A DNA stretch of 64,000 nucleotides from Bdellovibrionota bacterium (GTDB taxonomy: Bacteria > Bdellovibrionota > UBA2428). The position numbers and the translations under genes are program-made. Positions 25,301 through 41,109 of this stretch are shown here, piece after piece; positions within the stretch are counted from its first letter, which is position 1; each line of letters starts with the position of its first letter. The stretch covers positions 11,383 through 75,382 of the forward strand of contig DATLIP010000068.1 of NCBI GenBank assembly GCA_035539375.1, in the 5' to 3' direction. The notes under the pieces are model-generated. The model was given only the letters and a program-made list of their open reading frames with translations, had not been told where the DNA came from and did not search any database.

Positions 25301-28300
25301 TCCCGGCAGCGAGCAACACGGGGTTTGGCGAAGTTCTCATCGACCAGCGGGCTCGCACCATCACCTTCGGGGCGACCGCCGAGGAATTTCGTATTGGCAA
25401 GAACCGCATTGGCGGGGGTGCCAACACTTACCTGCAGGCGGGACAATTTGTTTACAAGCAGTACCAATACATCCATCCGAACCTCGCTTGCCGCTACCTT
25501 GTACGCGACCGAGGCAACCGGGTGATTCTCACCTGTACCACGAAAACGGGATCCGACACCGCACCTAAGGATTACCTCACCGAACTCAGTGGCGCGGCTG
25601 TGATCGACGTCCCCATCACTTATCCGCAGAGCACTAAGGGCATTGCCTTTGATTCGCTCCCGGCCGGCGTGAGCTTTGTGCAAGAATCTCCGGGGCGCTT
25701 CAAGTTGAACGGCTCGGATCAGCACTTGATGGGCGTGGCCCGTATGCCGCTCGTCTTGCGCGGCAATTTTTACGACCCCGATGTCAATGGACGTTCGGGC
25801 GCTAGCCAAGATACGATCACCATGAACGCTACGGCTCTGAATGGTGCGCTGATCGATGCGGCCGTTGTATACCGCAAAAAAGACGGCGATCCCATCACGG
25901 TCACCTATAACAACGCGTGTCTCAACAACGGAAAACGCGGGGATAACAGCGTCTCTTTCACTCCTAAGGACGTTTATAATTTGAGTTTTATGGAAATCGG
26001 GGCTTCGGACATGGCCACTGGCGATTTCATCGTGGTGGTCTATCCAGATTCCCGCTGTAGCACGCGCGACATGATGCCCACTGGCATCGACAACACCCCA
26101 CCTTGGATCGAGCTCAAGATCACCGATGGCACTCCCAATGTGGACACGCGTCTCAAGTTCTCTTTTGATTTCTTCGACAAACCCTATCCTCCGTACATTT
26201 ACGGTCACTGGGAAAACCCGGCGAACTGCGCAGGCTCGGCCTATTCGTTTTCGGAATACAAATACCTCGGCCAAGTGGTGGCCCGCTATGAATACGGCAC
26301 TTGGGATGAGTCTCTTGTGGCGCCCGAGGGCTGTGAATCGTATTCCTATGATTATTCAGGCACCACGAACATGTACGTGAACGGCGTGGTGCGATCGGTC
26401 AGCTACGTGTCCAAGAGTCGAGGCATTTATTGCTACGACTATACCGGTAGCAGTGGCAGCTGGATGTTGCCTGTTTATCGTGATAGCAGCGGCCGCGCTG
26501 TCGACGTGCGTCACCTAGGCAACCCGGCGAATCCGGCGGTGAACTACATTTGGAACGAGTCACCCGCGTTTTTGGGCCAGTTCTCGCGACCTCGTGCCGA
26601 CGAAACCACGAACCCCAACTACGAAGTTGGACTCAATCCCAAAGCTTGCCGCTTCATCGTGATCGATGACAACTACGATGACGTGAAACTCGGTTTTCTT
26701 AAGAAAACTTCGAAAAACGACTTCCTGATCCCCGTGGATCAGTCGGACGACAATGGCGAGTTCAACCCGGCGGCGACGGATTACACGGAGGTCCGTCGCA
26801 AGCACGGGATCAACGTGCGCGCCGACTATGGCCTGGGGCCTTCGGACGGTTCTACAGCTACGGATCTCGACTTCTCGCCGATCCTTGGAGTCGATGGAAA
26901 CTTTGTGCCTGCCAACGCTCCCAAGCCGCTCAAGATCGCAAACCTCTTTTCGAAGTGGTACAAGCTCGCCGGTCTTAATGCGGCGGGTTCGAGCCTCGCT
27001 ACTGGACTCAGCACTTTTGCATCCAGTGGGCTGACGCTGCGGGCGGATCTGGGCGATTTCAAAGTCATCAACTTCCGTCAGCCTCGCTTCCAGGGCATCG
27101 ACACCCGCGCTTATTTGATGTTCTCCAAAGAAAATCTCAAAGACCACGAGTACGTCTGTGAGCAAGACCTGATGACACCTGCCCAAGACGCCGCAGAGCC
27201 CATGGGTGGGGTGATCTACCAAGCGCTGCGCGCGGGCTCGTTGCACACTCTCAAGCTCAAAACCAATTTTGTCGCTGACAATTTTTACAATGCCGACTGC
27301 GTGAACGACAGCGGCGAGGTGCAGCTCACACGCCCGGGCTGCGTCTACCAATTCACCGCGGCTTGCGCAGTGGACCCCACGCTCGACCAAGAGCAGGCTC
27401 GCGATCCGTCGTGCTACGCACCCATCGCAAGCGCCACCAAGACCATCGCCAATGCCAAGTGCTTTAGCGTGGATCCTAAGGTCGAAGCCAAGTGGTCGCA
27501 AGACGGTGTTCTTTCGGGCGACGCCTTTACGGAATTTGCCGAGTCGCCTTATGACCTTTACTTTGAAGTGAAGGGCGTGGGTGATTTTGTGGAGGGCACC
27601 AGTGGTGACGCGCGCGATTGGCGCTGTGCCGCACGCTCTTGGTATAAAGACGGTTATCTGGATTTCCGCTGCTCGGTGAAGGGCGATGACCAGAACAAGT
27701 ACTTCGCGGTGTCGGAGCTTAAGTCTCAAGAAAAAGACACCTTCAACACGTGGCTCAGCTCGAGCGGTCTCAATGTGAAAAACACCCCTACGGGCTACAC
27801 TTACGAATCGCCATGGGAGAAACACTACGAAATCACCTGGGCGCCTTCGCTGGCGAACCCCGGCGGTGCAGATCCCGTGGCAGCCCCAGCCATTTGGTCG
27901 GGCATGCTTGTTGCCGAAGACGCGCCCGTGCCGATCTTTGGCAACAAACGCGCGCGTGTGACCACGGCCCTGCATATGAAAGCCATCGACGTGCTCAGCA
28001 CGGACACCACGATGGCCATGCAAACCACGTGGCTCAACGTCAACGTGGGCGAGGGCGACTCGGGCAAAGCGCTGATCCCTTACTGGGTACAGAGCAACGA
28101 CGCGAAGGTGGCTCCTTTTGTGACCTCGGCTCCCGATAGCGAAAGCTCGCCGCCTACGACGACCTTTATCAAAAACCTTTCTGCGTGGTTCCAGCGTCCT
28201 CACGCGAATACCGACAAGGCCGGTTTCCAGAACTGGATGCTGAACGCCGCAGAGTCCTCCAAAGTCGATGTCACACCCAATCCCGAGAACTCCTTTGTGG

Positions 28301-31300
28301 GGATCAGCGGTTTTGAGGGCTATGGCTCACGCGTGACGCCGCCGCTGGGAGGCATGGACGGTTTCATCAAGGTCGCCAAATACCGCTCGCAGCTCGAAGG
28401 CTTGCGCTTCAAGCGTGAGTACAAGTCCGATCACCTGCCGTACACCCAACGCTTCAACCTCAAAGCGGGAGCGCAGTGGCCGATGGAATTCTATACCGAC
28501 AACGCTTCTGAGTACTATCCGGATTACACCGGCAACGGCAATACTTACACGCGCTCTACGCTCGGTCGTGGAGGTAAGGGCGCTGCCACTTTGACCTATT
28601 CCGAGGCTTATCCTATCGCAGCAGGCCAACCGAAGATCACCGTTTACGAACGCAACGACACGCCTTGCTTAACGCTAGAAGGTGGCGTGGCGGCTACAGT
28701 GCGCGGCACGACCTGCGATCCCGACGTCAACAATCGCTTTGCTGCGGCGACCCCGAATAACATGTCTGCAGGTTCGACGGTGCTCTCGGCCGCCAACGAT
28801 GCGAGCGGTGTGATGACCTACGAAATTGAAGTCAAAGGCTTCGACGACTCTGGCTCCACTCCCGGCACCGGGACCACCGGTTCAAATGGCAAAGGCATCG
28901 CCGAGGGCGTGCCCTATGGTCTGCGCCTGGCGGCTCGCGATCCGAACTTCACGGGTGGCTCGGTGCTCAACGCACGACTCTTGTCGTCTCCAGCTGTCGA
29001 CCGTCGCTTCCCTTTCGATGGCGGTACCTCAATCACCAAAGTGCTCGAGGGTGGGGCGAGCGCCGTGCAAAACCTTCCGCACTACTGGGCAATATGGTCC
29101 ATTACGGGTGTGCTCCAAGACCCGCACGTGCGCAAGACGACAGTGCTGGACGCGGGGCTAGAGCTACCCAAGATTCAGGTAGAAGTTTACGACAACGGTC
29201 AGTATCCCGGTGCGGCGCGCGAGCGCATGAACTTCTCGGTGCACGGCTGGGACTACAACAGCAAGCCCAATTACCTCGGCCCGGTGGCATTCTGGATCAC
29301 CGGCCAGGACATGGACATGTTCATCAACGGCTTCGTGCCCAAGTTTAAATACGATCTTGAAAACCAGGGCATCGAGAACAATATCGTGATGGCCGCCTAC
29401 GACATGGACCGCGGTGACACGCTCCAATTCACCGTTACAGGACAGAACGCTTACGGTTTTGCTCCGGGAGACTTTTCGGCTACCACGATTTCTCCGAGCC
29501 ATCCCAATTATGATCTGTGGTGTAAGAACCCGGCGAAGATCTCTAAGAATATCGAAACCGCAGGCGGCCAAGAGCTCGCTTGTGTGAAGATCTCCTTCAA
29601 AATGAAATTCAACACCGTGGCCGATGTGAACTTCGGTGTGACGGTAGAAGACGTGCCCTGGTGGGCTCAGCCTGGTGTGACCCAGGTTTATAACCCCAGT
29701 GCCGGTGCTTATGTGACGGCCAACTATGCCGACCTCTACGAAGCGCGCTTTGGCCCCGCGGATCTTGGCATTGCGCCGCAGTCGGTGAGCGGCAGCGTTT
29801 CGATCTCGGGCAACATGGCTCCCAAAGTGCTCACCTACCAAGGCGTGGAATCTTATCCCTTTGGTATCGCGTATAACGACGAGGGTTATCGTCAGGATTT
29901 TGTGATCACGGGATCGGACCTTTCGGGCGTGAGTTGTCAGCTCACCAAGTCGCCCAAACTGAGTCCTTATGCTCTCGAAGAGCTCGCCTCGCTCGGATAT
30001 AGCCTGCAGCCCGAAGAGACGATGACAATCTCCACCATCAACGTCGCAAACGACACCAAGATTTGTCGGCTCAGCTGGCGTGCGATCGCCCGTCCTGCGG
30101 GTTACAACCCTTGGGTACGCTCGAACGCCGCCGAAATGAACGTCGAAGTGAAGATCTACAGCGGCGCTACGGTGATCCACACCGCAGCCTATAAAATTTC
30201 TGAAAAAGGTCCCGGAGCAAACACTCAGGACTCCGTGCGTTCGCCTCAGTACTTCTCGTACTCGAGCCGGCCGACAGTTGCGGTGGGTACTCTTGAGATC
30301 GGCGCATCGGTGGATAGCGTGGCGCTCACTAAGAACGCGAGCCTCGAGCTTGTGGGTGACGAGGCCAAAGAGTGGACTTTCAGTGCGCCCTTCCGCTCGC
30401 ACACCTCGAGCTTCACTTATTATCCGATCGACGCCATTTGGTACTTCGATGGCAAACCGGTGGCAATCGGCGGCGAAACCTACAAGCGTTTCTTCAACCC
30501 CAAAGAATCGGGTCAGCACACGATCGCTTTGGCGATTCACGACGGTTCGATGAACCGCTACACCTACCACGAGCAAAAGATTCTCGTGCGCAACAACGTG
30601 CCCTTCCTCGATCCGTCTGAGGGCGTTTCGGTGGTGGATGCGGGCTTCCGTCCGAACATCGACACCTTCTTGTTCTCGTCGCTCTGGTCGATGCCCACTG
30701 AAAAGTCCTTTGTCGTGAACGGTATCAAGAACAACGCGACCAACTTGCTCACTTACCGCAACCAGTCCAGCTCGCTGAAAACGCAATTCACCTACGTGGT
30801 GGCGCTCCAGCACGGCGGTCTCTACTACGACTCGTCGCGTGCCCTGTGGCTCTATTCGAACGTGGCGACGGCGGGTCCGAGCCTTAACGAAAGCGCTTCG
30901 ACGGCGGGCTATCACCCGAACTACGGCGGCGCTAAGAACCACCAGCAGTACTATTTGCTCGAAAATGGCCAGATGACTGCCACCAACCAAACCACTTTCG
31001 GTTCGAGCCTGCGTTCGAGCGTGGTCTTCTCGAACACTCGTGAACGCGCCAAAGGTCTGATGCGCTCTGAGAACATCGACTCGAGCGCCTACATCGTGTG
31101 GACCAACGACTTGCGCAGCGGTCGCAACGCGAACCGCCTGTGGGTGCACGATTCCACAAACCAGCGCACGTTGGGCTACATCAACGTGGGCCCCGATTCG
31201 ATGAGTGGACCTTCCCGCATTCAGGATTTCCGAGTGGCAACCGTGGGCTCGCAGAAGACCATCGCTGTTGCCACGGTCGACGGTATTTATATGGTGCCTT

Positions 31301-31779
31301 ATGGCGGCACGGGTGGGGGCGACGGTGTGTGGTGGAAACGCGACGAGAACTTTGACCTCGCCGCGCTCAGCTCGGACATCCCCTCGGATGTCGACCGCAA
31401 CGTCACGCTGAGTGGCAACGCGCGCATCGTGGCCTTCACCGGCACAAAACTCATCCTTTGGAACGGCACGAGCGTTGAAGAGTACAATGTGAGCTATTCT
31501 TTGGGCTCGTACACCGTGACGCTCGCACGCACGGTTAGCGGCGTCTTGCCACTGCGAAGCTCAAACCCCAACGACGACTACTCGTCTTATAATAGTGTTA
31601 CCAACATGGTGATCCTCATCGAAGGCGGCAGCGGCGGCGTAGAGATGGTCGACATGGCCAAGGTCACGCCGGCCACTCACCGGGCCGATGTGACCTCGGG
31701 CGCCCTGCAATCGGTCGTCTGTGGTCTGGAATGCTACGTTTTTGATGCTCAGCGTAACGCCGTCATTCCCTTGAAATAA
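22375..31779 (+). CDS. Giant lipoprotein (3134 aa) with divergent cadherin/Ig-like modules; otherwise unassignable
   Basis: Lipobox LGAC (Cys31). Starts 33 nt after the previous gene behind a GAGGGA Shine-Dalgarno (GTG 22375 or ATG 22378). Cadherin-like signatures include IDLDGDEVLVRW, TIDDVNRAPYLTS...VKAKDADGDAISMSLDV, VTDVNSTPLV and AYDMDRGDTLQFTVTG. No recognisable catalytic motif. Confidence 0.75.
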   Translation: MMRTIIGHQKGIQLLGSSRGALLGLVLSLGACKGVDVSTVPSLLVDAGDRVNFQMTPDLAKHGLRVNSAEVYVYENGDYVVDPLAQVEISGTGVQYKYSKGRVPSGLDYVVVKYAVPNGRDVTMRAFIPTDATSVKLGVANTKTVDWFLSLTDTQPTVDEWTRVKNYFDVALSRACYDPSLPYSTIYKRMRAVENGIFDSAELTSLVQEFAVSSANLRMKFGENRKPYLSRAIPIPSETQLNLVNVRESNSRYLYSETIDLDGDEVLVRWKMTGGETLPTSWIKYKESAFLPKAFWPIEYLKVDSTFDDSTETDFRAFGLNLSVCDGGRLQSYDYHVTIDDVNRAPYLTSTRPSNVSISEFVVTDPVNTTKVYTVKAKDADGDAISMSLDVSSSPNVFLSATPTLTVQGMLIGRWVGGDVSTDVVTAQEKKWPLTASTIRMPEEVTFKSNGKVMLKDYPAPGQDTELEYEGFTPKQGDLLGVKLKSLPIASPVNIGSIDLLCTIKLGGGARSFDFVCSHTHESLSTADFEWRRSYRCPTFTATSATENENCFYRRANAPDGVNPDKDQLLYLIYRPQNNDSKRGDITAYVNISDYPRAGATSTSIEYKVTDVNSTPLVTGVRDISQHYPADPVEILNYSETNANSNYKFDQPWVRLNQRIFTEWDVGSQKYTDVPSNKRTWVEKMLWRKVSAGPQSDLFAQADYFYFVSEKTDAHFSKIIFGNNQAFPDNHKMPTTPKFDGDTEHRKARLLRYDGTNTYVYIPHFYGPAHASIQPSDTADVKDLKQDAVCRISNWFYRNPASYQGLVDKAIDINDAGKFKADPIHSDVKVVCAQSYGSTCSRTGACAQTDLDAIAGLSQAGLDTNGTQFDMAIERLLFGRVPSGESGDTGGAIDGTPNFYSGRTKVLATAADASTNFLSLNSETYNSVIYGLMYGYFTLPSKWDTGQKPDHIDGSAKRLLVQKIRENWGPSSTGIFPAASNTGFGEVLIDQRARTITFGATAEEFRIGKNRIGGGANTYLQAGQFVYKQYQYIHPNLACRYLVRDRGNRVILTCTTKTGSDTAPKDYLTELSGAAVIDVPITYPQSTKGIAFDSLPAGVSFVQESPGRFKLNGSDQHLMGVARMPLVLRGNFYDPDVNGRSGASQDTITMNATALNGALIDAAVVYRKKDGDPITVTYNNACLNNGKRGDNSVSFTPKDVYNLSFMEIGASDMATGDFIVVVYPDSRCSTRDMMPTGIDNTPPWIELKITDGTPNVDTRLKFSFDFFDKPYPPYIYGHWENPANCAGSAYSFSEYKYLGQVVARYEYGTWDESLVAPEGCESYSYDYSGTTNMYVNGVVRSVSYVSKSRGIYCYDYTGSSGSWMLPVYRDSSGRAVDVRHLGNPANPAVNYIWNESPAFLGQFSRPRADETTNPNYEVGLNPKACRFIVIDDNYDDVKLGFLKKTSKNDFLIPVDQSDDNGEFNPAATDYTEVRRKHGINVRADYGLGPSDGSTATDLDFSPILGVDGNFVPANAPKPLKIANLFSKWYKLAGLNAAGSSLATGLSTFASSGLTLRADLGDFKVINFRQPRFQGIDTRAYLMFSKENLKDHEYVCEQDLMTPAQDAAEPMGGVIYQALRAGSLHTLKLKTNFVADNFYNADCVNDSGEVQLTRPGCVYQFTAACAVDPTLDQEQARDPSCYAPIASATKTIANAKCFSVDPKVEAKWSQDGVLSGDAFTEFAESPYDLYFEVKGVGDFVEGTSGDARDWRCAARSWYKDGYLDFRCSVKGDDQNKYFAVSELKSQEKDTFNTWLSSSGLNVKNTPTGYTYESPWEKHYEITWAPSLANPGGADPVAAPAIWSGMLVAEDAPVPIFGNKRARVTTALHMKAIDVLSTDTTMAMQTTWLNVNVGEGDSGKALIPYWVQSNDAKVAPFVTSAPDSESSPPTTTFIKNLSAWFQRPHANTDKAGFQNWMLNAAESSKVDVTPNPENSFVGISGFEGYGSRVTPPLGGMDGFIKVAKYRSQLEGLRFKREYKSDHLPYTQRFNLKAGAQWPMEFYTDNASEYYPDYTGNGNTYTRSTLGRGGKGAATLTYSEAYPIAAGQPKITVYERNDTPCLTLEGGVAATVRGTTCDPDVNNRFAAATPNNMSAGSTVLSAANDASGVMTYEIEVKGFDDSGSTPGTGTTGSNGKGIAEGVPYGLRLAARDPNFTGGSVLNARLLSSPAVDRRFPFDGGTSITKVLEGGASAVQNLPHYWAIWSITGVLQDPHVRKTTVLDAGLELPKIQVEVYDNGQYPGAARERMNFSVHGWDYNSKPNYLGPVAFWITGQDMDMFINGFVPKFKYDLENQGIENNIVMAAYDMDRGDTLQFTVTGQNAYGFAPGDFSATTISPSHPNYDLWCKNPAKISKNIETAGGQELACVKISFKMKFNTVADVNFGVTVEDVPWWAQPGVTQVYNPSAGAYVTANYADLYEARFGPADLGIAPQSVSGSVSISGNMAPKVLTYQGVESYPFGIAYNDEGYRQDFVITGSDLSGVSCQLTKSPKLSPYALEELASLGYSLQPEETMTISTINVANDTKICRLSWRAIARPAGYNPWVRSNAAEMNVEVKIYSGATVIHTAAYKISEKGPGANTQDSVRSPQYFSYSSRPTVAVGTLEIGASVDSVALTKNASLELVGDEAKEWTFSAPFRSHTSSFTYYPIDAIWYFDGKPVAIGGETYKRFFNPKESGQHTIALAIHDGSMNRYTYHEQKILVRNNVPFLDPSEGVSVVDAGFRPNIDTFLFSSLWSMPTEKSFVVNGIKNNATNLLTYRNQSSSLKTQFTYVVALQHGGLYYDSSRALWLYSNVATAGPSLNESASTAGYHPNYGGAKNHQQYYLLENGQMTATNQTTFGSSLRSSVVFSNTRERAKGLMRSENIDSSAYIVWTNDLRSGRNANRLWVHDSTNQRTLGYINVGPDSMSGPSRIQDFRVATVGSQKTIAVATVDGIYMVPYGGTGGGDGVWWKRDENFDLAALSSDIPSDVDRNVTLSGNARIVAFTGTKLILWNGTSVEEYNVSYSLGSYTVTLARTVSGVLPLRSSNPNDDYSSYNSVTNMVILIEGGSGGVEMVDMAKVTPATHRADVTSGALQSVVCGLECYVFDAQRNAVIPLK

Positions 31780-31855: not shown

Positions 31856-33667
31856 ATGAAAGCGCATTTGCGTACCTTATTCGTCTTTGCCGTGGCCGCG
31901 ACGTGCTCGTCTGCGTTTGCGCAAGCGCTGATGCCCAAGCTCACTCCGCGCTATGCCGAGCGCGTGCTCAGCGAATACCTTGAAGAGATCGCCGTCGAAT
32001 CGCTCGGGAACATTCTCGACAAAGATTCTTTCGAAGTTCTCGTCGACATCAAAGTTGAAGATGCCGAAGAATTAGAGAAGATCAAAGACCTTGCTTCGCA
32101 GGGACCCATGCCTGGCCTCACGGCACCGGCGTCGCCTTTTACCCGCAAAGAACTTCTCGGTTTTCTCGAGTCGCTTCAGCAAAAGAAGAACATCCTTATT
32201 GTGATCGATCCGGATAGCATCCCGGGTGGAGATCGCAAAGCCAAGCTCATCGAGCTCGTGCAAGAAACCCTCACCGGCAAGCTCAAGCTCAATCTCGCTT
32301 CGCAGCGCGATGTTATCGTGATCCGCGAAGCGCAAATCGTGCCCAAGCTTGACGAAAATGGCCGCTCGATCGCTTCTGAAAATGGAGATCGTCGTCACGT
32401 GAGCGTGAACGAGACCAACTCGGGCACGGACTTTTCGTTCTTTTGGAATTTCCTCTTGAGCGCGATGGTGCTCGGCGCGAGCTACTACGGTTACCGCTAC
32501 TGGAAAAACCGTCGCACCGTTTCCTTCATGAGCGACGAAAAGACGTCGGTCGAAGAGTTCAAAGGCGTGGGGCCAGCCCTCAGCCCTTATTACGGTTTGG
32601 GTGAAGAGAACGAAAAAGACGAATCGGCCGAGAAGGGCCGCGAAGAACTCGTGAGTCTCTTCGAGAAACTGGCCGTGGATTACCCTGGCCTCAGCTCGCA
32701 GGCCCTGCAGAAGTACGTACAAATTTACGGAGAAGACCTGCGCAGCGTGGTGCATTTTGTGGAACTCGTGGGCTTTGACCGTGCCCTGAAACTCTTCTCG
32801 GATGTTCCTCAAAAAACTTGGCGCGTGATCGGTCAGTTCATGGCGATCAATCCGCTTGGTCCGGACGATTTGATCAACTACAAAGAAGTGCTCACTCTCT
32901 ACCGTATCCTGATGGCCTTCGTGGTAGAGAACAAAGGCTTTGACTCCGACATGGGCGTTTTTGCCAAGCTCGAAGGTCATTCGCCGGTGGATCTCTACTT
33001 GGCCCTGCAGGAAGAGAGCGATGTCTTTATCGCGAAGTTCCTCTCGGGGGTTTCTGAGTCGACCTCTTCAGACATCGTTAGCCAATTCGATTCCAGCCGT
33101 AAGATCAAGATCCTTGCCACCATGGCCAAGGTTCGCAACGTAACAAACGACGAACTCGTGACGATCGAATCGAAATTGTCCAAAAAGCTTGGAGGCGATT
33201 CGGGAGCGAAGCTTGTCGAAGTCACCAACGACGCACGCATCTTCCGCTCGCTGGCGCAAATGTCGCCAGTGCAAGAAGAGCAGCTTTTTGCGGACATGCT
33301 CAACTCAGACCCTGAGCTCGAAATTCGAGCTCAGCGCCACCGCTTTTATCCTGTGCACCTCGCCACCATTGATGCCAACGTTCTAAAAGAAGAACTTCGC
33401 ACCTTCCCCGTGGACGACATCGCGCGCATGCTGCGCGGCTTGCACCCCACAATCGAACGACGCATCCTCTCGCTCGCCCCCGAGCGCAAGGCGGCCGTGG
33501 TTCAGGACGCGCTAGACGCGCTTCGCACTCAGCCCATCGTGCCCGAATACGCCGAAGTACGCCGGGCCTTTATGGACATGCTTTACGACAAATACGTCGG
33601 CTCAAACCAGGACTTCGCGGGCAATTTGTTCTCGAACGGAATGGCAAGGGGCCCGCGTGCGGCCTAA
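31856..33667 (+). CDS. Bitopic membrane protein: periplasmic ring-building-motif-like N-terminal part, one TM, and a cytoplasmic FliG/MgtE_N-like domain (FliF/FliG-like chimera)
   Basis: Signal peptide (FAVAATCSSAFAQA), TM about aa 193-215 (FSFFWNFLLSAMVLGASYYGYRYW). The cytoplasmic C-terminus LKEELRTFPVDDIARMLRGLHPTIERRILSLAPERKAAVVQDALDALRTQPIVPEYAEVRRAF lines up with the FliG_C pattern L+EV....LA.AL+G......+IL.NMS.RAA..L.EDLE..GPV.L.EVE.AQ. An upstream FliG_M/MgtE_N-like helical repeat is also present (SPVDLYLALQEESDVFIAKFLSGVS...SSDIVSQFDSSRKIKILATMAKVRNVTNDELVTIESKL). The assignment is by eye only. Confidence 0.6.
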   Translation: MKAHLRTLFVFAVAATCSSAFAQALMPKLTPRYAERVLSEYLEEIAVESLGNILDKDSFEVLVDIKVEDAEELEKIKDLASQGPMPGLTAPASPFTRKELLGFLESLQQKKNILIVIDPDSIPGGDRKAKLIELVQETLTGKLKLNLASQRDVIVIREAQIVPKLDENGRSIASENGDRRHVSVNETNSGTDFSFFWNFLLSAMVLGASYYGYRYWKNRRTVSFMSDEKTSVEEFKGVGPALSPYYGLGEENEKDESAEKGREELVSLFEKLAVDYPGLSSQALQKYVQIYGEDLRSVVHFVELVGFDRALKLFSDVPQKTWRVIGQFMAINPLGPDDLINYKEVLTLYRILMAFVVENKGFDSDMGVFAKLEGHSPVDLYLALQEESDVFIAKFLSGVSESTSSDIVSQFDSSRKIKILATMAKVRNVTNDELVTIESKLSKKLGGDSGAKLVEVTNDARIFRSLAQMSPVQEEQLFADMLNSDPELEIRAQRHRFYPVHLATIDANVLKEELRTFPVDDIARMLRGLHPTIERRILSLAPERKAAVVQDALDALRTQPIVPEYAEVRRAFMDMLYDKYVGSNQDFAGNLFSNGMARGPRAA

Positions 33668-33685
33668 TGATGGAGGATATGGCTT

Positions 33686-34486
33686 ATGAACATCGCTAGT
33701 ATTATCGGTTTTATAATGGCCGGTAGCGTGGTTTGGTTCGGGGTTATCGGCCCTGCCGCCAACCGCAACATGTTTATGGACTCGCACGCGCTGATCCTTG
33801 TGATCGGTGGCACCATGGCAGCCGCGTTCATCGCGTTTCCTCTGAAAAAGATCATGGGCATGTTCAAAGTGCTCGTGAAAGAGGTGATGTTCAAACGCAG
33901 CAGCCCCAACGTGGCGCTCGTAAAAGAGATCATCGACGCCTCGAACGTTGCCAAGCTCGACCCTGCGGCTCTGGGTGGCCGTACGGCTACACACCCTTTC
34001 CTTAAGGAAGGCTACCAGATGATCGCCGACGGCGTGCTCTCGGACAGCGAACTCCATGAAGTGCTCAAAAAGCGCTCGATGTTCTTTAAAAAAGACTACG
34101 GCGGCGACGCCAAAATGTTCACCGCACTCGCTAAGTTTCCTCCGGCCTTTGGTCTTCTCGGCGCTTCGTCGGGGATGATCGCCATGATGGGCAGCCTGGG
34201 CAACGGCGCCGGTCAGCAGTATATCGGCCAAGCCATGGCGATCGCGCTCGTCGCGACCTTCTGGGGTATCGGCATCGCGAACTTGGTGCTCCTGCCTCTG
34301 GCGGACTACTACCACAAGCTCGCAGACGACGATTTTTACACGCGCCTGCTCGTGATGGAAGGTATCATGATGCTCAAGCGTCGCGAATCTCCCATCGTGG
34401 TGGTCGAAAAGATGAACTCCTTCTTGCACGTGTCGGAACGGGTCAACGCCCCGGCCGCTGCGAGCTCCGGTAGAAGGGCGGCCTAA
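33686..34486 (+). CDS. motA: Flagellar-type stator protein MotA/PomA (proton or sodium channel)
   Basis: 266 aa, 4 TM with a long TM2-TM3 cytoplasmic loop. FPPAFGLLGASSGMIAMM (equivalent to MotA PAFGMIGT, Pro173) and ALVATFWGIGIANLVLLPLADYY (Pro222 equivalent). GGAGGA Shine-Dalgarno 6 nt upstream. Confidence 0.85.
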   Translation: MNIASIIGFIMAGSVVWFGVIGPAANRNMFMDSHALILVIGGTMAAAFIAFPLKKIMGMFKVLVKEVMFKRSSPNVALVKEIIDASNVAKLDPAALGGRTATHPFLKEGYQMIADGVLSDSELHEVLKKRSMFFKKDYGGDAKMFTALAKFPPAFGLLGASSGMIAMMGSLGNGAGQQYIGQAMAIALVATFWGIGIANLVLLPLADYYHKLADDDFYTRLLVMEGIMMLKRRESPIVVVEKMNSFLHVSERVNAPAAASSGRRAA

Positions 34487-35253
34487 TGTTTTCGCCGTCG
34501 CGTCGACCTCCGCCGCCCCCTTCATCGGGATACTCGCGCGGCATCGCCACTCGCAAACTGCTCGAAGCTGCTTCGCTGCAGGACGACATGATGGAGATGG
34601 AAGAGACGACGCCGCACGTGGACGAAGGTTGGCTGGTGTCCTACGCGGACATGATGACGCTGCTTTTTGGTCTTTTCGTTTTGCTCTACTCGATGTCCAC
34701 CATGGATAGCGAAAAGTTCGAGACCCTCAAAAAGGTCTCGGCCGAGTCTTTTGGTGGCCAGTATCAAAACCCCGTAGAAGATCTCAATAAGAACATCGCC
34801 AAGCAATTCAAAGAACTCTCCAAGAGCGGTGCGATCACGCTCAAAGAAACTCCCACGGGGATTGAAATCAACATTGGCGGCGAGCTGCTCTTTGCCTCGG
34901 CCCAAGCAGATTTCACCGAAGGTGGCCTCACGATCATCAACCAATTTGCCGACGCTGTGAAAAAGGCCCCTGGCAAATTCGTGATTCGCGTGGAAGGTCA
35001 TACCGACGACGCGCCCATCGCCACCGAAAAGTACCCCTCTAACTGGGAACTCTCCTCGGCTCGCGCCACCCACGTGGTGCGTCAGCTGATCTCGCGTGGT
35101 TTTGACCCCACCAAAATGGAAGCGATCGGCTACGCTGAGACGCGTCCCATGGCTCCGAACCGCTCTCCTGCGGGCGAGCCCATCGCGGTGAACCAGGCCA
35201 AAAACCGTCGTGTTTTCTTGAAGGTCGTCACCGACCCGAACCTTGTAAAATAA
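34486..35253 (+). CDS. motB: Flagellar-type stator protein MotB (OmpA-like peptidoglycan-binding C-terminal domain) with a Pro-rich N-terminal extension
   Basis: EGWLVSYADMMTLLFGLFVLLYSMS carries the essential channel Asp in the YAD context. The OmpA-like region is VEGHTDDAPI...SNWELSSARATHVVRQL...GYAETRP...NRRVFLKV. The start overlaps the motA stop (TAATG). Confidence 0.85.
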   Translation: MFSPSRRPPPPPSSGYSRGIATRKLLEAASLQDDMMEMEETTPHVDEGWLVSYADMMTLLFGLFVLLYSMSTMDSEKFETLKKVSAESFGGQYQNPVEDLNKNIAKQFKELSKSGAITLKETPTGIEINIGGELLFASAQADFTEGGLTIINQFADAVKKAPGKFVIRVEGHTDDAPIATEKYPSNWELSSARATHVVRQLISRGFDPTKMEAIGYAETRPMAPNRSPAGEPIAVNQAKNRRVFLKVVTDPNLVK

Positions 35254-35270: not shown

Positions 35271-36689
35271 TTACGGCGCCTCTTTTGTCTGCACATCTTT
35301 TTCGAGCAGCTTTTCGGTCTTTACCGACATCAAATCCGTCACTTCGCGCTTTGAGGGCGCCAGAGCTTCAAAGCTCAATAGCTTTCCGCGCTGAATGTTC
35401 AGCTCGTCGATCTTCTTCTCCCCAATCACAATGGTGTAGCGCCCCTGGGGCAGCACGTAGCGGTTGTTGGTGAGAAAAAACCCTTGGGCATTCTTAAACT
35501 TCGATACGCTCTGGATCTTGGTTTGAATCTTGGTTTTGGTGCTCGGCACTCCGGGGCCCGCATTGTCGACGGCGAAAACGTCGTAAGGCTCTTTTTGCTT
35601 GGACCTCACCGTGATCATGCCCCAGTCGGGGGCTTCGAGCTTTTTCACGGTGCCTGGTGTGACCGAGATGTTGTCCCACTGGTGCGCCAGGCCCGTGGTG
35701 GTGGTGGCAAAGACGTTGTAACGGCTAACGGGGAGCTTGGTCTCTTCGCCCGCGTAAAAGACGTATTCCTTGGCGCTCAAAATGTCCTGTGCGATGAGCT
35801 GAATGGGAAAGCTCGGCATGGCGAGGGTCATGGCGCCGCGCCCGTCGGCGATGAGCACTTTGCGCTCGTTTTCCGCTAGAGTGACGGCTTTGAACTTGAA
35901 GGGTGGCTGGTATTGCACTTCGACGTCGTAGGTGTCGGGCGGCAAATTGGTGCCGAGGCTCGAGACAAATCGAAAGGTCTTGCCCGGTTGGGTGGTGGAT
36001 TTCGCCACGGCCCAGGCGTCGGGCTCGGGGCCCTTGACGATGATCGTCTGTTTGGTGCTGAGCGCGTCGAACTTGAACTCCGAGAGCGCGTCGGCAAAGC
36101 CTTCGGGGGAATTGGCGTTCTTCACGGGCCCGAGGCACGAGAGCTCTTTGAACTGTTTGACGTTCTGGGCGCCGTAGGTGAGCACGTAGATCTTCACGTC
36201 GAGTTGCTCTTTGATCTTTTTTGCTTCAGCGCAAGGGTCGCCCTTGCAGGTTTCCTCGCCGTCAGTGATCAGGATGATGCGTTTCTCGCCAGGCATTTCT
36301 TTGAGGGCGGCGAAGCTTTGCTTGAGGGCTTCGGCGATGGGGGTCATGCCGCGCTCCACGGGTGTGATCTCTTTGATCATCTCGCGCACGCGAGCTTGGT
36401 TCTTGGGGTAAAAGCCCAGGCGCTGCTCGATGAGCTTGGCGTCGCAGCTGCGGGGTTTCAGGTGACCTAAGACTCGCAGCGATGAGGTGGCATTTTCTTT
36501 TTCGATGCTCTCAATGGCGACGGCCATCATCTTCTTCGCGGTGGTGATTTTTTTCTCACCCTTTTCGTCTAGGAGCATCGAGCCCGAGGCGTCGAGGATG
36601 AATTCGATGGCTATCGGGGAGGGCGTGCTCTGCGCGTGGGCGAGGGGGGTGAGAGTGAGTAGCGTCGAGAGGGCGAGGAGTTTTTTCAT
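35271..36689 (-). CDS. Secreted von Willebrand factor A (VWA) domain protein
   Basis: 472 aa. Signal peptide (LSTLLTLTPLAHAQS). MIDAS-type DxSxS (FILDASGSM) and later ILITDGEETC. The C-terminal ~250 aa are unassigned. Confidence 0.8.
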   Translation of the reverse strand: MKKLLALSTLLTLTPLAHAQSTPSPIAIEFILDASGSMLLDEKGEKKITTAKKMMAVAIESIEKENATSSLRVLGHLKPRSCDAKLIEQRLGFYPKNQARVREMIKEITPVERGMTPIAEALKQSFAALKEMPGEKRIILITDGEETCKGDPCAEAKKIKEQLDVKIYVLTYGAQNVKQFKELSCLGPVKNANSPEGFADALSEFKFDALSTKQTIIVKGPEPDAWAVAKSTTQPGKTFRFVSSLGTNLPPDTYDVEVQYQPPFKFKAVTLAENERKVLIADGRGAMTLAMPSFPIQLIAQDILSAKEYVFYAGEETKLPVSRYNVFATTTTGLAHQWDNISVTPGTVKKLEAPDWGMITVRSKQKEPYDVFAVDNAGPGVPSTKTKIQTKIQSVSKFKNAQGFFLTNNRYVLPQGRYTIVIGEKKIDELNIQRGKLLSFEALAPSKREVTDLMSVKTEKLLEKDVQTKEAP

Positions 36690-37939
36690 AAATCGAGGCT
36701 CCGGCTAAGTTGTATTGAAAAGCCGCTCTGGCGAGCGGTCGAGCGCGAGTTGGAGTTGAAGACCGAGGGATCGGGATAGCCGCTCGGATAACTCACCTCA
36801 CCTGAGAACTTGGTCCACGAGCGCTCATAGGTGTAGGCAAAAGTGAAGTTGAATTTGTTGAGCCACCAGCGGTTGGAAATTGTTTCTAGCCCCAAGGCGA
36901 GCGTGCCGCTCATTGCGCCGAAGGTGGCGGAGTCGCCGCGCTGAAACTCGCCCGAGTCCGTGGCGTTGCCCACGGGGTGGTATTCGGCGCGCAGTTGGGG
37001 TGGGGTGACGCGCAAGCCAATGATTGGCGCAAAGATGAGGCTGTGGTCGATGAAGTCGAGGCCCACACCCGCGCGCAGTCCCCAGCTATGGTACGCCGTG
37101 CTGAGAATGGAGTAATCGTCGGTGAGATTTGTCTTGAAGTCACGCCGCTGATGCACGGCCATCAGCGAGAGGTCGAGATTCCAGATTTTCTGATGCACGC
37201 CGAGAGCTAACTGCAACTCGCTCACGTGCGTCTCCACGGGAGGATCGGTATCGCTCGAAAAATACCCACGCGTGGAGAGATCGTTGCTATAGGATTTGAA
37301 ATCCGCCACGAGGAATTTGGATTTGATCTCAAGTCCAAATTCGCTTCCCCAAGTCACATGGCGCGAGTACTTGGAGTCGTTGAAGGCGAAGTGGTCCGTG
37401 GGGTCGCCTGTATCAAAGAAATCCTTGGGACTCTCTTTGAGGTAGAGCGAACGGCGGCCAAAGAAGGGCGTCAGACGCAAGCCAAAGCTGCCTTTGCCGC
37501 GAGCTTCCCCTTGGGAATTGCGTCCGTCTTCGAGAATCTTGCGGATGAGGTCGGGATCGTTGATCTCAATCAGAAAAAAATCAGCCGTGCGCGGGGAAAC
37601 GGGCAGGTAGCGACGCGTCTGGCCGTTCTCGATCACTCGAAACGAGCAGTTTTCGCTGTCGCAGCCGCGCAGTTGCCCTGAGGAGAGTGGAATGTCTCCG
37701 AAAACCGGATGGCGATACACCAGCCCTAGGTAAACCGGGTACTGGAGACGCTTGGGTTGCGCTGTGGGACGCACGATGATGTCGATGTCCTGGGACTCTT
37801 CGAGGGGTGCGGAGCGCTCGAGGCGACGGATTTCGAAGTTTTTGGACTGGGCCCGTGCTTCGGGGCTTTGAAAAAGCGGCGAGGCCGAGAGGGAGAGCGA
37901 CAAAATTTTGACGAAAGTCTTCCGCTTTGACGCTCTCAT
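36686..37939 (-). CDS. Secreted protein, putative outer-membrane beta-barrel; translationally coupled to the VWA gene
   Basis: 417 aa. Signal peptide (LSLSLSASPLFQSPEARAQ), alternating hydrophobic/aromatic strand-like C-terminal half. Its stop overlaps the VWA start (ATGA). Confidence 0.45.
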   Translation of the reverse strand: MRASKRKTFVKILSLSLSASPLFQSPEARAQSKNFEIRRLERSAPLEESQDIDIIVRPTAQPKRLQYPVYLGLVYRHPVFGDIPLSSGQLRGCDSENCSFRVIENGQTRRYLPVSPRTADFFLIEINDPDLIRKILEDGRNSQGEARGKGSFGLRLTPFFGRRSLYLKESPKDFFDTGDPTDHFAFNDSKYSRHVTWGSEFGLEIKSKFLVADFKSYSNDLSTRGYFSSDTDPPVETHVSELQLALGVHQKIWNLDLSLMAVHQRRDFKTNLTDDYSILSTAYHSWGLRAGVGLDFIDHSLIFAPIIGLRVTPPQLRAEYHPVGNATDSGEFQRGDSATFGAMSGTLALGLETISNRWWLNKFNFTFAYTYERSWTKFSGEVSYPSGYPDPSVFNSNSRSTARQSGFSIQLSRSLDL

Positions 37940-38002
37940 CTCCCCATTGTATTTTTTTTCGTAAAAAACAAAATGTTTTTCTGAGAAGATCCGATAAAGA
38001 CG

Positions 38003-38845
38003 GTGATGAAAACGCTACGCACGATTTTTATGGCCGTGATTTTGGTCGGCGCGCTGGGCGCTTGCGGCACGATGTACCGTGTTCGTTCGTTCCCCGAAGG
38101 CGCCAAAGTGGTCGTACAAAACGTCGTGTCCAAAGAAGAGTTCGAGATCGGTGAGACACCGGCGAACTTTGAGCACCTGCCCAAGTACGGCGATGGTTTC
38201 ATGATCAAAGTCTCTAAAGAGCAGTTCCTGCCCGAAGAGATTTTCCTCAGCCGCGCCCCTGGCTCTGACACCACAGTGCAAGTCAACCTCAAACCAGGCC
38301 AAGACCCCAACGGTTTGGCCGGTAATGACGATAACAAAGACAAGAAGCCCGAAGACAAGAAGAACGAAGAAGACGAGCTCAAGAACCGCATCGCGGTGCT
38401 CGAGCGTACCTTTGAGATCTTCAAGGGCGCCATCTTCTCGCCCCGCCTCGGCTCGAGCCCTCCCTCGGTGGATCGTCGCAATACCGACATGAAGGTCGGC
38501 CTCGTGAACAAGGCCCAGGCCTTTATCGAGCGCCGTCAGTTCGACAAGGCCGAAGAGGCCATCGACCGCCTGATGGAACAAGACGAATACCTTACGCAGG
38601 GTCACGTGCTGAAGGGCACCATGGCCTTCATGCAGGGCGATTACCAGGGCGCAGCGCGCTCTTGGGAGCGTTCGCTGGAGATCGACCCCTATCAAAAACT
38701 TACTCGCCAATACCTGGTGGAAGCCTACAAGCGCATGGGCCGCGACGTGCCGGGTGATCCCGAAGAATTTGAACTCGTCGATCGCACGCCCGCTTCCTCG
38801 CCTCTGCAGACCGACACCCTTAAGTTGAGGCTGCGCAACCGATGA
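38003..38845 (+). CDS. PEGA-domain lipoprotein with a C-terminal TPR-like region
   Basis: Lipobox LGAC. Literal PEGA motif (VRSFPEGAKVVVQN...GETPANFEHLP). Lys/Asp/Glu-rich linker. TPR-like helices (AEEAIDRLMEQDEYLTQGHVLKGTMAFMQGDYQGAARSWERSLEIDPY). Confidence 0.7.
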   Translation: MMKTLRTIFMAVILVGALGACGTMYRVRSFPEGAKVVVQNVVSKEEFEIGETPANFEHLPKYGDGFMIKVSKEQFLPEEIFLSRAPGSDTTVQVNLKPGQDPNGLAGNDDNKDKKPEDKKNEEDELKNRIAVLERTFEIFKGAIFSPRLGSSPPSVDRRNTDMKVGLVNKAQAFIERRQFDKAEEAIDRLMEQDEYLTQGHVLKGTMAFMQGDYQGAARSWERSLEIDPYQKLTRQYLVEAYKRMGRDVPGDPEEFELVDRTPASSPLQTDTLKLRLRNR

Positions 38846-39456
38846 AATCTTTGAGCTCGCTTCTTCTTGCGGCCTCGGTCTTTGCCGTTCCTGCCATGGC
38901 GGAAACGGTGCAGGCTTCCTTTTTGACGGGATTCCCGCTCGCACTCGTCGACCTCGACGGCGGCATTCGCGGCAACCTCAACGCCAAGGCCCTCATCGGC
39001 GGCGAGGTGACGCTGCACCTCAAGGACTATCCCTTCGCGGTGGGCGTCTATTACGAAGGCTACTTTGGTGGCGACTACGGCATGCTTCCGCTCAACAACA
39101 GCGGCATCATGTTGCACTACTACCCCTTCGGATCGCTCAACAACAACACGAACATCGGCAACAAAGTTTCCGTGCGTCAAACAGGTCTCACCATGTACGG
39201 CACCTTTGCCGCCGGCTTGACCTTTATGAACATCCGCTCGCAGAAGGCCACCGACACCCAACATTTTTTTGGCGCTTCGGCATTCAACATGAAGCTCGCT
39301 GCGAACCTAGATTATCCGGTGGACGACCGCTTCGTGATGGGTGGAAGTCTTTATTATCTCACCACTTTTGGTGGCAAGGCGGGGCCTGACAACGAAGACG
39401 TGGGTATCCCGCTCTCGTTTGCCTTCGTGATGCGCAGTTCTTGGCTCTTTTTCTAA
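38842..39456 (+). CDS. Small secreted protein, putative 8-10-strand outer-membrane beta-barrel
   Basis: 204 aa. Signal peptide (LLLAASVFAVPAMAET), C-terminal ...SSWLFF. Start overlaps the previous stop (ATGA). Confidence 0.45.
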   Translation: MKSLSSLLLAASVFAVPAMAETVQASFLTGFPLALVDLDGGIRGNLNAKALIGGEVTLHLKDYPFAVGVYYEGYFGGDYGMLPLNNSGIMLHYYPFGSLNNNTNIGNKVSVRQTGLTMYGTFAAGLTFMNIRSQKATDTQHFFGASAFNMKLAANLDYPVDDRFVMGGSLYYLTTFGGKAGPDNEDVGIPLSFAFVMRSSWLFF

Positions 39457-39558
39457 GAGCCCATTATTAAGTTTTCGTAAAAGATCGCCGATTTAACAGT
39501 ATCGCCGAAATTTGTGCGCGCCCGGATGGCGTGTTCGTTTCGGAGATATGGAGACTTG

Positions 39559-41109
39559 ATGATGAAGGAATATCTCAAAAATTACGCGTCGATCTTGTCG
39601 CTCTTTGCGGTGGTGCTTACCCTTGTGACGGCGTTCGCCTTTAACATCTACCTCAATTCGCGCGATGCTTTTGTGAGCGCCGAAGAAATGAAATTCCGTT
39701 CGGCAGTGACCAATCTCGAGCGCGATATCGACGATCTCAAAGTACAACTCGACGACTCCGTGCTTGGCCTTGATCGCACTGGCGTGCACGGCAATTTTGA
39801 ATTTTATCGCAAGGGCACCGACTTGATGGCCAAACACACCCAGATGGCCGAGCGCGAGATCGCCATTCAGAGCGACGGCGGCGAACCTTTCGCGGCCAGC
39901 ATCCAGAATTTTCTCAGCGGAGACTACGTGCTCACCAACTCGCGCGGCGAAAGCCTTTCGTCGCACACCAAACAATTCAAATTTCTCACGAGCCAAGCGC
40001 GCGTGAATCTTATCCAAAAGAAAACCCTCGGAACGCAGGGTTTTTTGGTGCTCGACGCCTCGGGCGCTTACCTGGCCTCGAGTTTTGACTACCGAAACTT
40101 TTTGAAATCCACCGTGCTCGTTTGGAACCGCAAGATTCAGGGCTCGGACCTGGCCATGGTTCACGCCGCTGCGTATCCAGGTTTTTTGCCGATTTTCTTT
40201 AGCGTGCTCGGCTTTGCCGCGCTGATCTGTGTGCCCTTTGCGCTTGCGCTCTTCGTGATTCGTCGTCGTGTGGCCCGCGCTTATGGCGAAATCGCCGCAT
40301 GGGTCGGTGTCACCGCCGAATCGATGCGCTACGGCCGTCCGGTGGAGCTGCCCACCACGCGTTCGGTGACCCGTCAGGCGTTGCCGCTGCTCACGTCGAT
40401 TCAGGATGCCTTCTCCAAGACCTCGCCCTTGCTCAGCTACGGCGGCGGAGATTTTCTCTCGCAAGAATTCAATCTCGTGAGCTGGAATCATTTTAAGAAA
40501 ACCATTTCCCTCTGGCTCTGTGGACAGTCCGGCAACTTTGACGTCGAAAACGGCAAAGACTGGGTGGTTTGCTCGATCGGTGCCGTACGCGACTCCGTGC
40601 TCGACACCTTCGTGCGCGAAGCCAACGGCGCGATGCTCTCTAAGAAAATGTTCTTTTACCAGTACTCCGATCGCACGGTGCTCCTGGCACTGAAAGTGGT
40701 GGACTTTGAAGAGTCGCTAGAGCGTATCAAGGCGCTCATCAAAAACGCTGCGGCTCGCGAGGGCTTTGCCGCGCATGACATCGTGGTGGATGCCGTTTAC
40801 GGCTCGCAGCACACGTCGACCTTTGGAGATTGGTTTAGCTACTTTGAGTCGATCGTTCGCGCTCCCACTGCGGCGAAGCGCGATGAAGCGCTGATCAGCA
40901 CTGAGGTGGTGAGATTTTACATGTACGCTTCGCGCGAAAAGGTGCTCGCTCTGAACTGGATTCAGCTCATGGCTGGCGTGCGCAACTGGCTGCAGCTCAA
41001 GGCTCCGGAAGCTGAGAGCTATCAAAAGGCCCCGGGAGCAGCTCCGCGACCGAGAAAATTCGCTCGACCCCGTTTAGCGAAGCCTGGCACAGCAGCGTCC
41101 GAGGGTTAG
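39559..41109 (+). CDS. Two-TM membrane protein with a periplasmic loop and a cytoplasmic domain (possibly a degenerate GGDEF-like fold)
   Basis: Start placed at ATGATG 39559 behind a GGAGA Shine-Dalgarno. TM1 ILSLFAVVLTLVTAFAFNIYL, TM2 FLPIFFSVLGFAALICVPFALALFVI. The cytoplasmic segment ...MFFYQYSDRTVLLALKVVDFEESLERIKALIKN loosely resembles the ...R.GGDEF.+LL.....EA...AE+I+ pattern. The 3' 113 nt overlap the convergent cdd gene. Confidence 0.5.
   Translation: MMKEYLKNYASILSLFAVVLTLVTAFAFNIYLNSRDAFVSAEEMKFRSAVTNLERDIDDLKVQLDDSVLGLDRTGVHGNFEFYRKGTDLMAKHTQMAEREIAIQSDGGEPFAASIQNFLSGDYVLTNSRGESLSSHTKQFKFLTSQARVNLIQKKTLGTQGFLVLDASGAYLASSFDYRNFLKSTVLVWNRKIQGSDLAMVHAAAYPGFLPIFFSVLGFAALICVPFALALFVIRRRVARAYGEIAAWVGVTAESMRYGRPVELPTTRSVTRQALPLLTSIQDAFSKTSPLLSYGGGDFLSQEFNLVSWNHFKKTISLWLCGQSGNFDVENGKDWVVCSIGAVRDSVLDTFVREANGAMLSKKMFFYQYSDRTVLLALKVVDFEESLERIKALIKNAAAREGFAAHDIVVDAVYGSQHTSTFGDWFSYFESIVRAPTAAKRDEALISTEVVRFYMYASREKVLALNWIQLMAGVRNWLQLKAPEAESYQKAPGAAPRPRKFARPRLAKPGTAASEG

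Follow-up and report, generated by a model that had tools for sequence, protein, structure and literature searches.

In the bacterial flagellar motor, the third ring-building motif of FliF (RBM3) builds the 33- or 34-mer S-ring, and the C-terminal domain of FliG (FliG_C) bears the surface on which the rotation of MotA5B2 acts. Ion-driven motors of the 5:2 type (MotAB, ExbBD, TolQR, GldLM, AglRQS, ZorAB, and SiiAB) have been reused many times. No such reuse is known to us for the rotor side, where FliG and its torque interface appear to be confined to flagella. In a 2025 survey, stators that bear a plug, are anchored to peptidoglycan, and have an expanded cytoplasmic domain are treated as a hallmark of flagella (PMC12505986). 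Here, we analyzed a stretch of 64,000 nt, called the window in the following, from Bdellovibrionota bacterium (UBA2428), which is uncultured and related to the predatory Bdellovibrio (assembly GCA_035539375.1, contig DATLIP010000068.1, positions 11,383–75,382 of the forward strand). It contains the gene of a 603-aa protein that naturally joins FliG to what is probably a truncated FliF with RBM3 alone, followed by genes for MotA and MotB. With somewhat better than even odds (about 0.55), we consider that this locus encodes a flagellum-derived, non-flagellar rotor–stator machine with output to envelope or adhesin partners.

The fusion gene (31856–33667), motA (33686–34486), and motB (34486–35253) are three open reading frames (ORFs) on the plus strand, tightly packed within 31856–35253. 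An earlier note, drawn up from the letters of this DNA alone, had described an 18-nt gap with a GGAGGA sequence in front of motA and a 1-nt overlap (TAATG) between motA and motB. Both are exact in the ORFs and in the junction sequence. The fusion protein is the presumed rotor subunit, and its fold was predicted with AlphaFold2 (AF2). The model used is based on a family alignment of 53 sequences; an alignment of three sequences gave a poor model with a predicted local distance difference test score (pLDDT) of 59 and was not used. The mean pLDDT was 84.5, and the domain blocks exceeded 90. In this model, the N-terminus is a hydrophobic signal or transmembrane (TM) helix ending in AFA/QA. It is followed by an alpha/beta periplasmic domain (aa 31–158, nucleotides 31946–32329), a disordered stretch, and a TM helix (aa 193–221, nucleotides 32432–32518). 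Next comes the K/R-rich sequence RYWKNRR on the cytoplasmic side, in agreement with the positive-inside rule, then a disordered linker and about 335 residues of helical repeats (aa 256–591). The topology that had been read from the sequence (a hydrophobic N-terminal helix, a periplasmic domain, one TM helix, and a cytoplasmic region) is thus reproduced by the model.

The cytoplasmic region (nucleotides 32621–33628) is FliG-like, with an N-like part at aa 256–360, an M part at about aa 372–447, and a C part at about aa 471–591. The earlier note had seen a FliG C-terminal pattern with torque-helix charges in the last 90 or so residues, preceded by FliG_M-like repeats, and had proposed a profile search of this domain as a check. 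That search returned significant FliG matches, namely FliG_M (PF14841) with 30.3 bits (cut-off 25) and FliG_C (PF01706) with 34.8 bits (cut-off 23.3). FliG_N was weak, with 14.1 bits and below the cut-off of 25. A Foldseek search of the model against the PDB gave full-length FliG as the top matches (8umx_B, 3hjl, 8wiw, 8vib, and 8wo5), with 309–324 aligned columns and E-values from 7e-07 to 5e-06; over the full-length FliG chains of 310–331 residues, the E-values extend to 2e-05. By phmmer against PDB sequences, aa 372–556 align to the middle and C-terminal domains of Thermotoga maritima FliG (E 3e-06). Because the top Foldseek matches span full-length FliG chains, the cytoplasmic part comprises all three FliG domains (N, M, and C) and not merely the C-terminal 90 residues.

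The equivalent of the torque helix lies at aa 543–556 (ERKAAVVQDALDAL, nucleotides 33482–33523, plus strand), as placed by alignment to FliG of T. maritima and E. coli. In the phmmer alignment, R544 aligns with R281 of these proteins, and D551 aligns with D288. Position 544 is Lys or Arg in 51 of the 53 family members. The acidic residue is found at one of two neighboring positions: Asp is at 551 in 14 members and at 552 in 27, and Glu is present in five more, so that Asp or Glu occurs in 46/53. The EHPQR motif, by which FliG binds FliM, is not kept. The protein has EESD in place of EHPQ, and the family as a whole retains just the Glu (46/53 members); this fits the absence of fliM and fliN nearby. 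Against the FliG equivalog TIGR00207, the protein scores 26.7 bits, far below the cut-off of 226.7. It cannot count as a genuine flagellar FliG, since it lacks the EHPQR motif, misses the equivalog score, is anchored in the membrane, and has no flagellar neighbors.

For the periplasmic part, a profile was built from 28 sequences of this domain alone and searched against the PDB sequences. The six best matches are all FliF or M-ring proteins (best E 0.002), and in the FliF alignments, RBM3 is matched in both of its halves, the C-terminal “RGD..I.R” strand included. In the Foldseek search, the second tier of matches consists of FliF RBM3/S-ring structures (7bk0, 6sd1, 8zdt, 8z4d, and others; E 0.06–0.5, probability 0.96–1.0, about 175 columns). 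The pLDDT is above 90 across most of the domain. At the site where FliF carries the beta-collar insertion, there is a short loop with a near-invariant LPG, and the beta-collar is absent. The Pfam family YscJ_FliF (PF01514), which represents RBM1 and RBM2, gave no match at E ≤ 1 in the fusion protein. Of the FliF/YscJ ring-building motifs that had been suspected here, the RBM3-like one is probable, at marginal E-values, and the YscJ-type RBM1 and RBM2 are absent.

MotA (266 aa; Pfam MotA_ExbB, 4e-16) aligns end to end (residues 1–248 to 1–246) with the solved flagellar MotA/PomA proteins (E 1e-26). It has four TM helices and an expanded cytoplasmic domain. The prolines of its PPAFG and LPLA motifs, equivalent to P173 and P222 of E. 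coli, are present in all eight orthologues, and the equivalent of E. coli R90 is Lys or Arg in 8/8. MotB (255 aa) carries the YAD channel aspartate in its TM helix, the MotB_plug domain (61.3 bits, 6.5e-17), and the OmpA domain (55.5 bits, 7.6e-15); in the PDB, flagellar MotB/PomB match it best (E 1e-28). Along their whole length, these alignments place MotA and MotB with the flagellar type. MotA is about 30% identical to characterized flagellar stators, and both subunits miss all NCBIfam equivalog cut-offs by a wide margin; hence, they are divergent. The word “canonical”, which the earlier note had used for this pair, holds for the flagellar type, the prolines, the YAD motif, and the plug and OmpA domains. 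It goes too far for the missed equivalog cut-offs and for the equivalent of MotA E98, which is Gly or Ala here.

Ala-Ala is the cytoplasmic C-terminal end of both the fusion protein (…GPRAA) and MotA (…GRRAA), encoded at 33659–33664 and 34478–34483, respectively. This ending is found in 22 of 50 full-length family members, compared with about 0.7% expected from composition, and in 7/8 MotA orthologues. Ala-Ala ends resemble the ssrA/CtrA-type degrons of ClpXP. By this analogy, the machine could be removed by regulated proteolysis.

Flagellar genes were searched for around the three genes. Essentially every ORF of 150 aa or more in the window was scanned with Pfam; no flagellar family turned up besides the fusion protein, MotA, and MotB, and tblastn of the window found no second copy of FliG, MotA, or MotB. 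The claim that the 64 kb hold no other flagellar genes is therefore correct. The gene contexts of 12 related loci were collected with flanks of ±10 kb (labels L001–L011 and L013–L014, plus one without DNA) and cross-compared by tblastn and phmmer. None of these 12 loci contains flagellar genes within its flanks. Literature searches, which were incomplete in coverage, yielded no description of a cluster of the fusion with MotAB.

An exhaustive HMMER search covered 1.84 billion representatives. It recovered six close relatives of the fusion protein and then about 40 distant full-length members (550–700 aa, 20–25% identity), followed by ordinary FliG. The wider family came from this search; word-indexed protein searches gave almost only the close relatives, and a genome-locus search with a seven-sequence alignment gave two genome loci only. 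Among 34 family members scanned with Pfam, FliG_C was found in 33, FliG_M in 29, and FliG_N in 17. All members with a named source come from uncultured Bdellovibrionota or Bdellovibrionales genomes, and so far, the cluster is restricted to Bdellovibrionota. The members are annotated as “hypothetical”, as “FliG C-terminal domain-containing”, or, automatically, as “FliG”.

The neighborhood of the fusion gene is conserved as well. With the exception of L009, every locus whose flanks are long enough has a MotA–MotB pair at most 6 kb away from the fusion gene (L012 is too short). A gene for a protein with tetratricopeptide repeats (TPR) is also near the fusion gene in the loci which extend far enough, and this holds down to 20–24% identity. 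Most loci also encode a protein with a VWA domain and either one or two giants, most of which carry FG-GAP repeats. The gene order differs between clades: it is MotA–MotB–(outer-membrane protein)–TPR–x–x–fusion in L007, L008, L010, and L014 and fusion–x–TPR–MotA–MotB in L013. The association survives this rearrangement, which argues for a functional link. The earlier idea of a natural FliF-like/FliG-like fusion with its own stator outside a flagellar context is borne out by the architecture and by the 12 loci. The description as an orphan, minimal module does not survive, as the three genes belong to a multi-gene envelope cluster.

When the fusion gene was compared with an 80%-identical orthologue, the proportion of nonsynonymous differences (pN) was 0.138, and that of synonymous differences (pS) was 0.887 and saturated. 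For the cluster genes against the orthologous locus at 80% identity, pN was 0.09–0.14, with pS saturated at 0.77–0.91. Because pN is this low against a saturated pS, we conclude that the cluster is under strong purifying selection.

As the fusion gene recurs with envelope genes in the related loci, we draw the conserved unit in the window as about 16480–41109. On its upstream side are two genes for giant lipoproteins on the plus strand. Giant lipoprotein 1 (1953 aa, 16480–22341) is a putative surface adhesin with integrin-alpha-type repeats (Pfam FG-GAP, 5e-34). A homologue adjoins the fusion gene in L005, and FG-GAP giants adjoin family members in L001, L011, and L014. Giant lipoprotein 2 (3134 aa, 22375–31779) ends 76 nt before the fusion gene. 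No Pfam domain was found across its 3134 residues, and in L001–L004, its homologues (24–63% identity) likewise immediately precede the fusion gene. It evolves faster than the motor genes, with 63% identity to its L001 orthologue compared with about 80%. Both giants start with ordinary lipoprotein signal peptides, with lipoboxes LTAC and LGAC, respectively, as read from the sequence. A Ser/Thr protein kinase gene (14868–16265, minus strand; Pkinase, 3e-41) is divergent from the gene of giant lipoprotein 1, with 214 nt between them, and is a possible regulator of the cluster. A scan for promoters and terminators gave counts at or below the shuffled expectation and was uninformative.

Downstream of motB, two genes lie on the minus strand. 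The first encodes a secreted VWA-domain protein (472 aa, 35271–36689; Pfam VWA, 1.4e-10). Its metal ion-dependent adhesion site (MIDAS) is complete, with DASGS followed by the Thr and the Asp, and orthologues are present in L001, L002, L004–L007, L011, and L014 (E about 1e-35 across clades). The second gene (36686–37939) overlaps it by 4 nt and encodes a secreted 417-aa protein, possibly located in the outer membrane. It belongs to no Pfam family and has orthologues in L001, L002, and L004–L006.

Three further genes are on the plus strand. The TPR lipoprotein (280 aa, 38003–38845; lipobox LGAC, Pfam TPR_2/TPR_1) is the best-conserved accessory gene. It matches the TPR genes of the distant clade (L007–L010) with phmmer E-values of 1e-42 to 1e-47 and, at E about 1e-46 across clades, is better conserved than the rotor protein. 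In L013 and L014, a TPR gene is likewise next to MotAB. The next gene encodes a small predicted outer-membrane beta-barrel protein (204 aa, 38842–39456) with a signal peptide, the C-terminus …SWLFF, and a weak OMP_b-brl match (E 0.009); orthologues occur in all clades (E 1e-9 to 1e-46). The last is a 531-aa bitopic or polytopic inner-membrane protein with predicted TM segments (39514–41109). It is a clade-specific, tentative member, with orthologues only in L001, L002, L004, and L006 and no Pfam or PDB relative. PDB sequence searches with the VWA, TPR, and 531-aa proteins gave nothing specific.

Some observations concern the gene models. The GTG start of the 531-aa protein at 39514 is uncertain, as the L001 orthologue aligns from residue 17 only. 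Its tail is of low complexity and basic (…PRPRKFARPRLAKPG…), and the 3′ end of the ORF overlaps that of a convergent dCMP/cytidine deaminase gene (40997–41470, minus strand) by about 110 nt. A 191-aa ORF at 37936–38511 (minus strand) was rejected as a gene because it is an antisense shadow of the TPR gene; it looks conserved in tblastn because it mirrors this conserved gene. Long antisense shadow ORFs are common in the window, which has 56% GC (e.g., 29164–31149, minus strand), and are not genes.

In the distant clade (L007–L011 and L014), the fusion gene starts within the last 1–4 nt of a gene for an N-terminally anchored protein of about 300–340 aa (e.g., L007 9051–10004); L009 is the exception, with a 2-nt gap. 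The overlap suggests translational coupling. By hhalign, this protein has no counterpart in the clade of the window. The accessory proteins of the distant clade (this one, given as about 310–340 aa, and proteins of 427, 405, and 204 aa) showed no significant relation to the 531-aa and 417-aa proteins in the same comparison.

Two other gene groups in the window lie outside the conserved unit. At 4547–6120 (minus strand), there is a gene for an HTTM-domain membrane protein, which is related to vitamin-K-dependent gamma-carboxylase. It shares 4 nt with an upstream ORF, whose 219-aa product belongs to no known family, and has no connection with the cluster. At 58554–62472 (minus strand), three genes for proteins of 405, 450, and 426 aa follow one another on the same strand; weak ankyrin-repeat matches, which do not reach the Pfam cut-off, are found in the first and the third. 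Such repeats are uncommon in bacteria and might mark effector-like proteins in a predator.

Based on these parts, we propose the following mechanism. By analogy with the MS-ring, the FliG ring, and engineered FliF–FliG fusions, the fusion protein would oligomerize into a ring in the inner membrane which displays the torque helices of FliG_C. Dedicated stator units of the MotA5B2 type would be anchored to the peptidoglycan by the OmpA-like domain of MotB and gated by the MotB plug. Using the ion-motive force, they would turn and push the ring through the K/R charges of MotA acting on the Asp of the FliG-like domain and through the K/R charges of the latter. Such a machine would operate without the FliM/FliN switch, the export gate, the rod, or the hook. 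As FliM/N, an export gate, and axial proteins are missing, the ring would have to pass its motion to something else. The candidates for this output are the TPR lipoprotein and the small outer-membrane protein, which are the conserved envelope partners. In most lineages, an integrin-like surface set would be added, consisting of the MIDAS-bearing VWA protein and the giant FG-GAP lipoproteins, whose VWA-MIDAS domain and FG-GAP propeller resemble the pair of head domains of integrins. The most likely role would be to move or tension adhesins for surface motility (gliding), adhesion, or prey contact. A more specific version is a second, flagellum-independent rotary nanomachine, in which MotAB spins the fusion ring and the ring is coupled via the TPR lipoprotein and the outer-membrane protein to the VWA-MIDAS protein and the FG-GAP giants for gliding, prey attachment, or invasion. 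This version we offer only tentatively.

The architecture, i.e., the domain identities, the conserved residues, the synteny, the selection, and the absence of nearby flagellar genes, is well supported. Several points weigh against the step from this architecture to a rotor–stator machine. The formation of a ring, the contact between MotA and the FliG-like domain, and the rotation are inferred by analogy, and the adhesin-driving function is speculative. The assignment to FliF RBM3 is marginal by E-value (0.002 for sequence, 0.06–0.5 for fold). The periplasmic region is short, with only about 165 aa, and the path by which rotation might reach the outer membrane is hypothetical. The equivalent of MotA E98 is never acidic in the eight orthologues, which removes one classical charge pair of the two between rotor and stator; the other pair appears, from the aligned residues, to be conserved on both MotA and the FliG-like partner. 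The giants and the VWA protein are missing from the flanks of L013, L010, and L009; thus, the adhesins may not be obligatory partners. Finally, flagella are present in cultured Bdellovibrio-like organisms, together with spare MotAB pairs (PMC12827227). A tie to the flagellum of the same cell is therefore conceivable.

Such a tie could take the form of an accessory: MotAB would be one of several sets which drive an ordinary flagellum, and the fusion protein would be a parking site for stators, a decoy, or a clutch away from the C-ring. For Bdellovibrio, PMC12827227 cites Morehouse 2011 for three MotAB pairs that are said to serve a single flagellum. Apart from E98, MotA and MotB are flagellar-type in all tested features, some family members are labeled “FliG” by annotation pipelines, and the Ala-Ala ends of the fusion protein and MotA, as possible degrons, would suit a regulated reservoir. 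We nevertheless regard this explanation as quite unlikely. Flagellar genes are absent within 10 kb in the 12 loci and within the 64-kb window, and a cytoplasmic decoy would not need an invariant TPR lipoprotein, an outer-membrane protein, and, usually, adhesin-like proteins. The conserved periplasmic RBM3-like domain and the full N–M–C FliG also exceed what a decoy needs, and MotA, at about 30% identity to characterized stators, fails all equivalog cut-offs. These low scores and the loss of the EHPQR motif could also be taken as signs of decay, with the genes as functionless flagellar leftovers or the domains as chance resemblance. Yet all ORFs are intact, the key catalytic and contact residues are kept, the HMMER search found more than 50 divergent relatives of the same architecture, and the synteny is conserved across clades. 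In view of the purifying selection and the breadth of conservation, a remnant is effectively excluded.

In another explanation, the cluster would energize the export, anchoring, or activation of the giant adhesins, similar to SiiAB/SiiE or the Ton/Tol systems. Conformational work dependent on the proton-motive force (pmf) would pass through the fusion protein and the TPR and outer-membrane proteins without continuous rotation. The synteny is compatible with this: the genes of the giants directly precede the fusion gene on its strand, the gaps are short, and no terminator-like signal separates them. The MIDAS of the VWA protein is intact. There is also a precedent for a MotAB-like pair serving a giant adhesin (bioRxiv 10.1101/641415). 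No FliG partner accompanies SiiAB or Ton/Tol, which belong to the ExbBD/TolQR type, whereas here the torque-helix charges and a probable ring-building motif are conserved. Moreover, L013 has the FliG-like protein, TPR, and MotAB, yet no giant or VWA gene is nearby, and the ordinary lipoprotein signals of the giants make no dedicated exporter evident. Hence, we consider an adhesin energizer rather unlikely. The anti-phage system Zorya was also considered and rejected: PADLOC detected no ZorA, ZorC, ZorD, or ZorE in the cluster and only a generic MotB/ZorB resemblance.

If the more specific version, the flagellum-independent nanomachine, holds, it would be the first reuse of the FliG–MotA torque interface outside a flagellum and a new type of adhesin-driving motor. 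A conserved non-flagellar FliG with a flagellar-type stator would be an exception to the rule of the survey (PMC12505986). It would also offer a stripped-down rotor, with one protein and neither switch complex nor export gate, for the study of torque and ring assembly. For the evolution of the flagellar motor, the cluster could be a derived simplification or a relative of an intermediate. In predatory bacteria, it would point to an unrecognized envelope machine, possibly for surface motility or prey engagement.

Among the known systems, Zorya ZorAB and Salmonella SiiAB resemble the cluster as MotAB-family units outside the flagellum, and SiiAB works with a giant adhesin. Both lack a FliG-like partner, whereas the stator of the cluster has one and keeps the plug, the peptidoglycan-binding domain, and the expanded cytoplasmic domain. 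The gliding motor of the Bacteroidota, which is linked to the type IX secretion system (T9SS; GldLM/SprB), is an analogy of logic only: it also combines an ion-driven 5:2 motor with giant adhesins and lipoprotein and outer-membrane partners. GldL and GldM are not flagellar-type and have no FliG-like rotor, and Pfam scans found none of the Gld, Spr, T9SS, or Glt families in the cluster proteins. The Agl–Glt machinery of Myxococcus and Bdellovibrio consists of AglRQS, GltA–K, and the VWA adhesin CglB. It is similar by type of part, with a pmf-driven motor, TPR lipoproteins, outer-membrane beta-barrels, and a VWA-MIDAS adhesin. Agl–Glt has no FliG or FliF domains, and no sequence relationship was detected between its accessory genes and those of the cluster. 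AglRQS is of the TolQR type, with a condensed cytoplasmic domain and neither plug nor OmpA domain (PMC12505986). Beyond the generic 5:2 motor family, the two gliding motors share no detectable homologous parts with the cluster.

Engineered FliF–FliG fusions (Salmonella; Vibrio, PDB 8z4d/8z4g) are covalent FliF–FliG membrane proteins as found here. They are laboratory constructs of full-length FliF and FliG inside a flagellum, whereas the fusion in the window occurs in nature, lacks much of FliF, and is found outside flagellar gene clusters. The engineered fusions still assemble rings (PMC10941966; PDB 8z4d); thus, the fusion architecture is viable.

The closest system is the flagellar rotor–stator (FliF/FliG with MotA5B2 or PomA5B2). 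In contrast to it, FliF and FliG are one polypeptide here, RBM1, RBM2, and the beta-collar are absent, and the EHPQR motif and the equivalent of MotA E98 are lost. No genes for FliM/N, an export gate, a rod, a hook, or a filament are nearby, and adhesin and envelope genes are found as neighbors instead. On the rotor side, the cluster shares with the flagellar motor the N, M, and C parts of FliG, the K/R and Asp of the torque helix, and, probably, the RBM3-like domain. On the stator side, it shares the four TM helices, the long cytoplasmic domain, and both prolines of MotA, together with the channel Asp, the plug, and the OmpA-like peptidoglycan anchor of MotB. All three proteins, the fusion protein, MotA, and MotB, are homologous to the parts of the flagellar motor.

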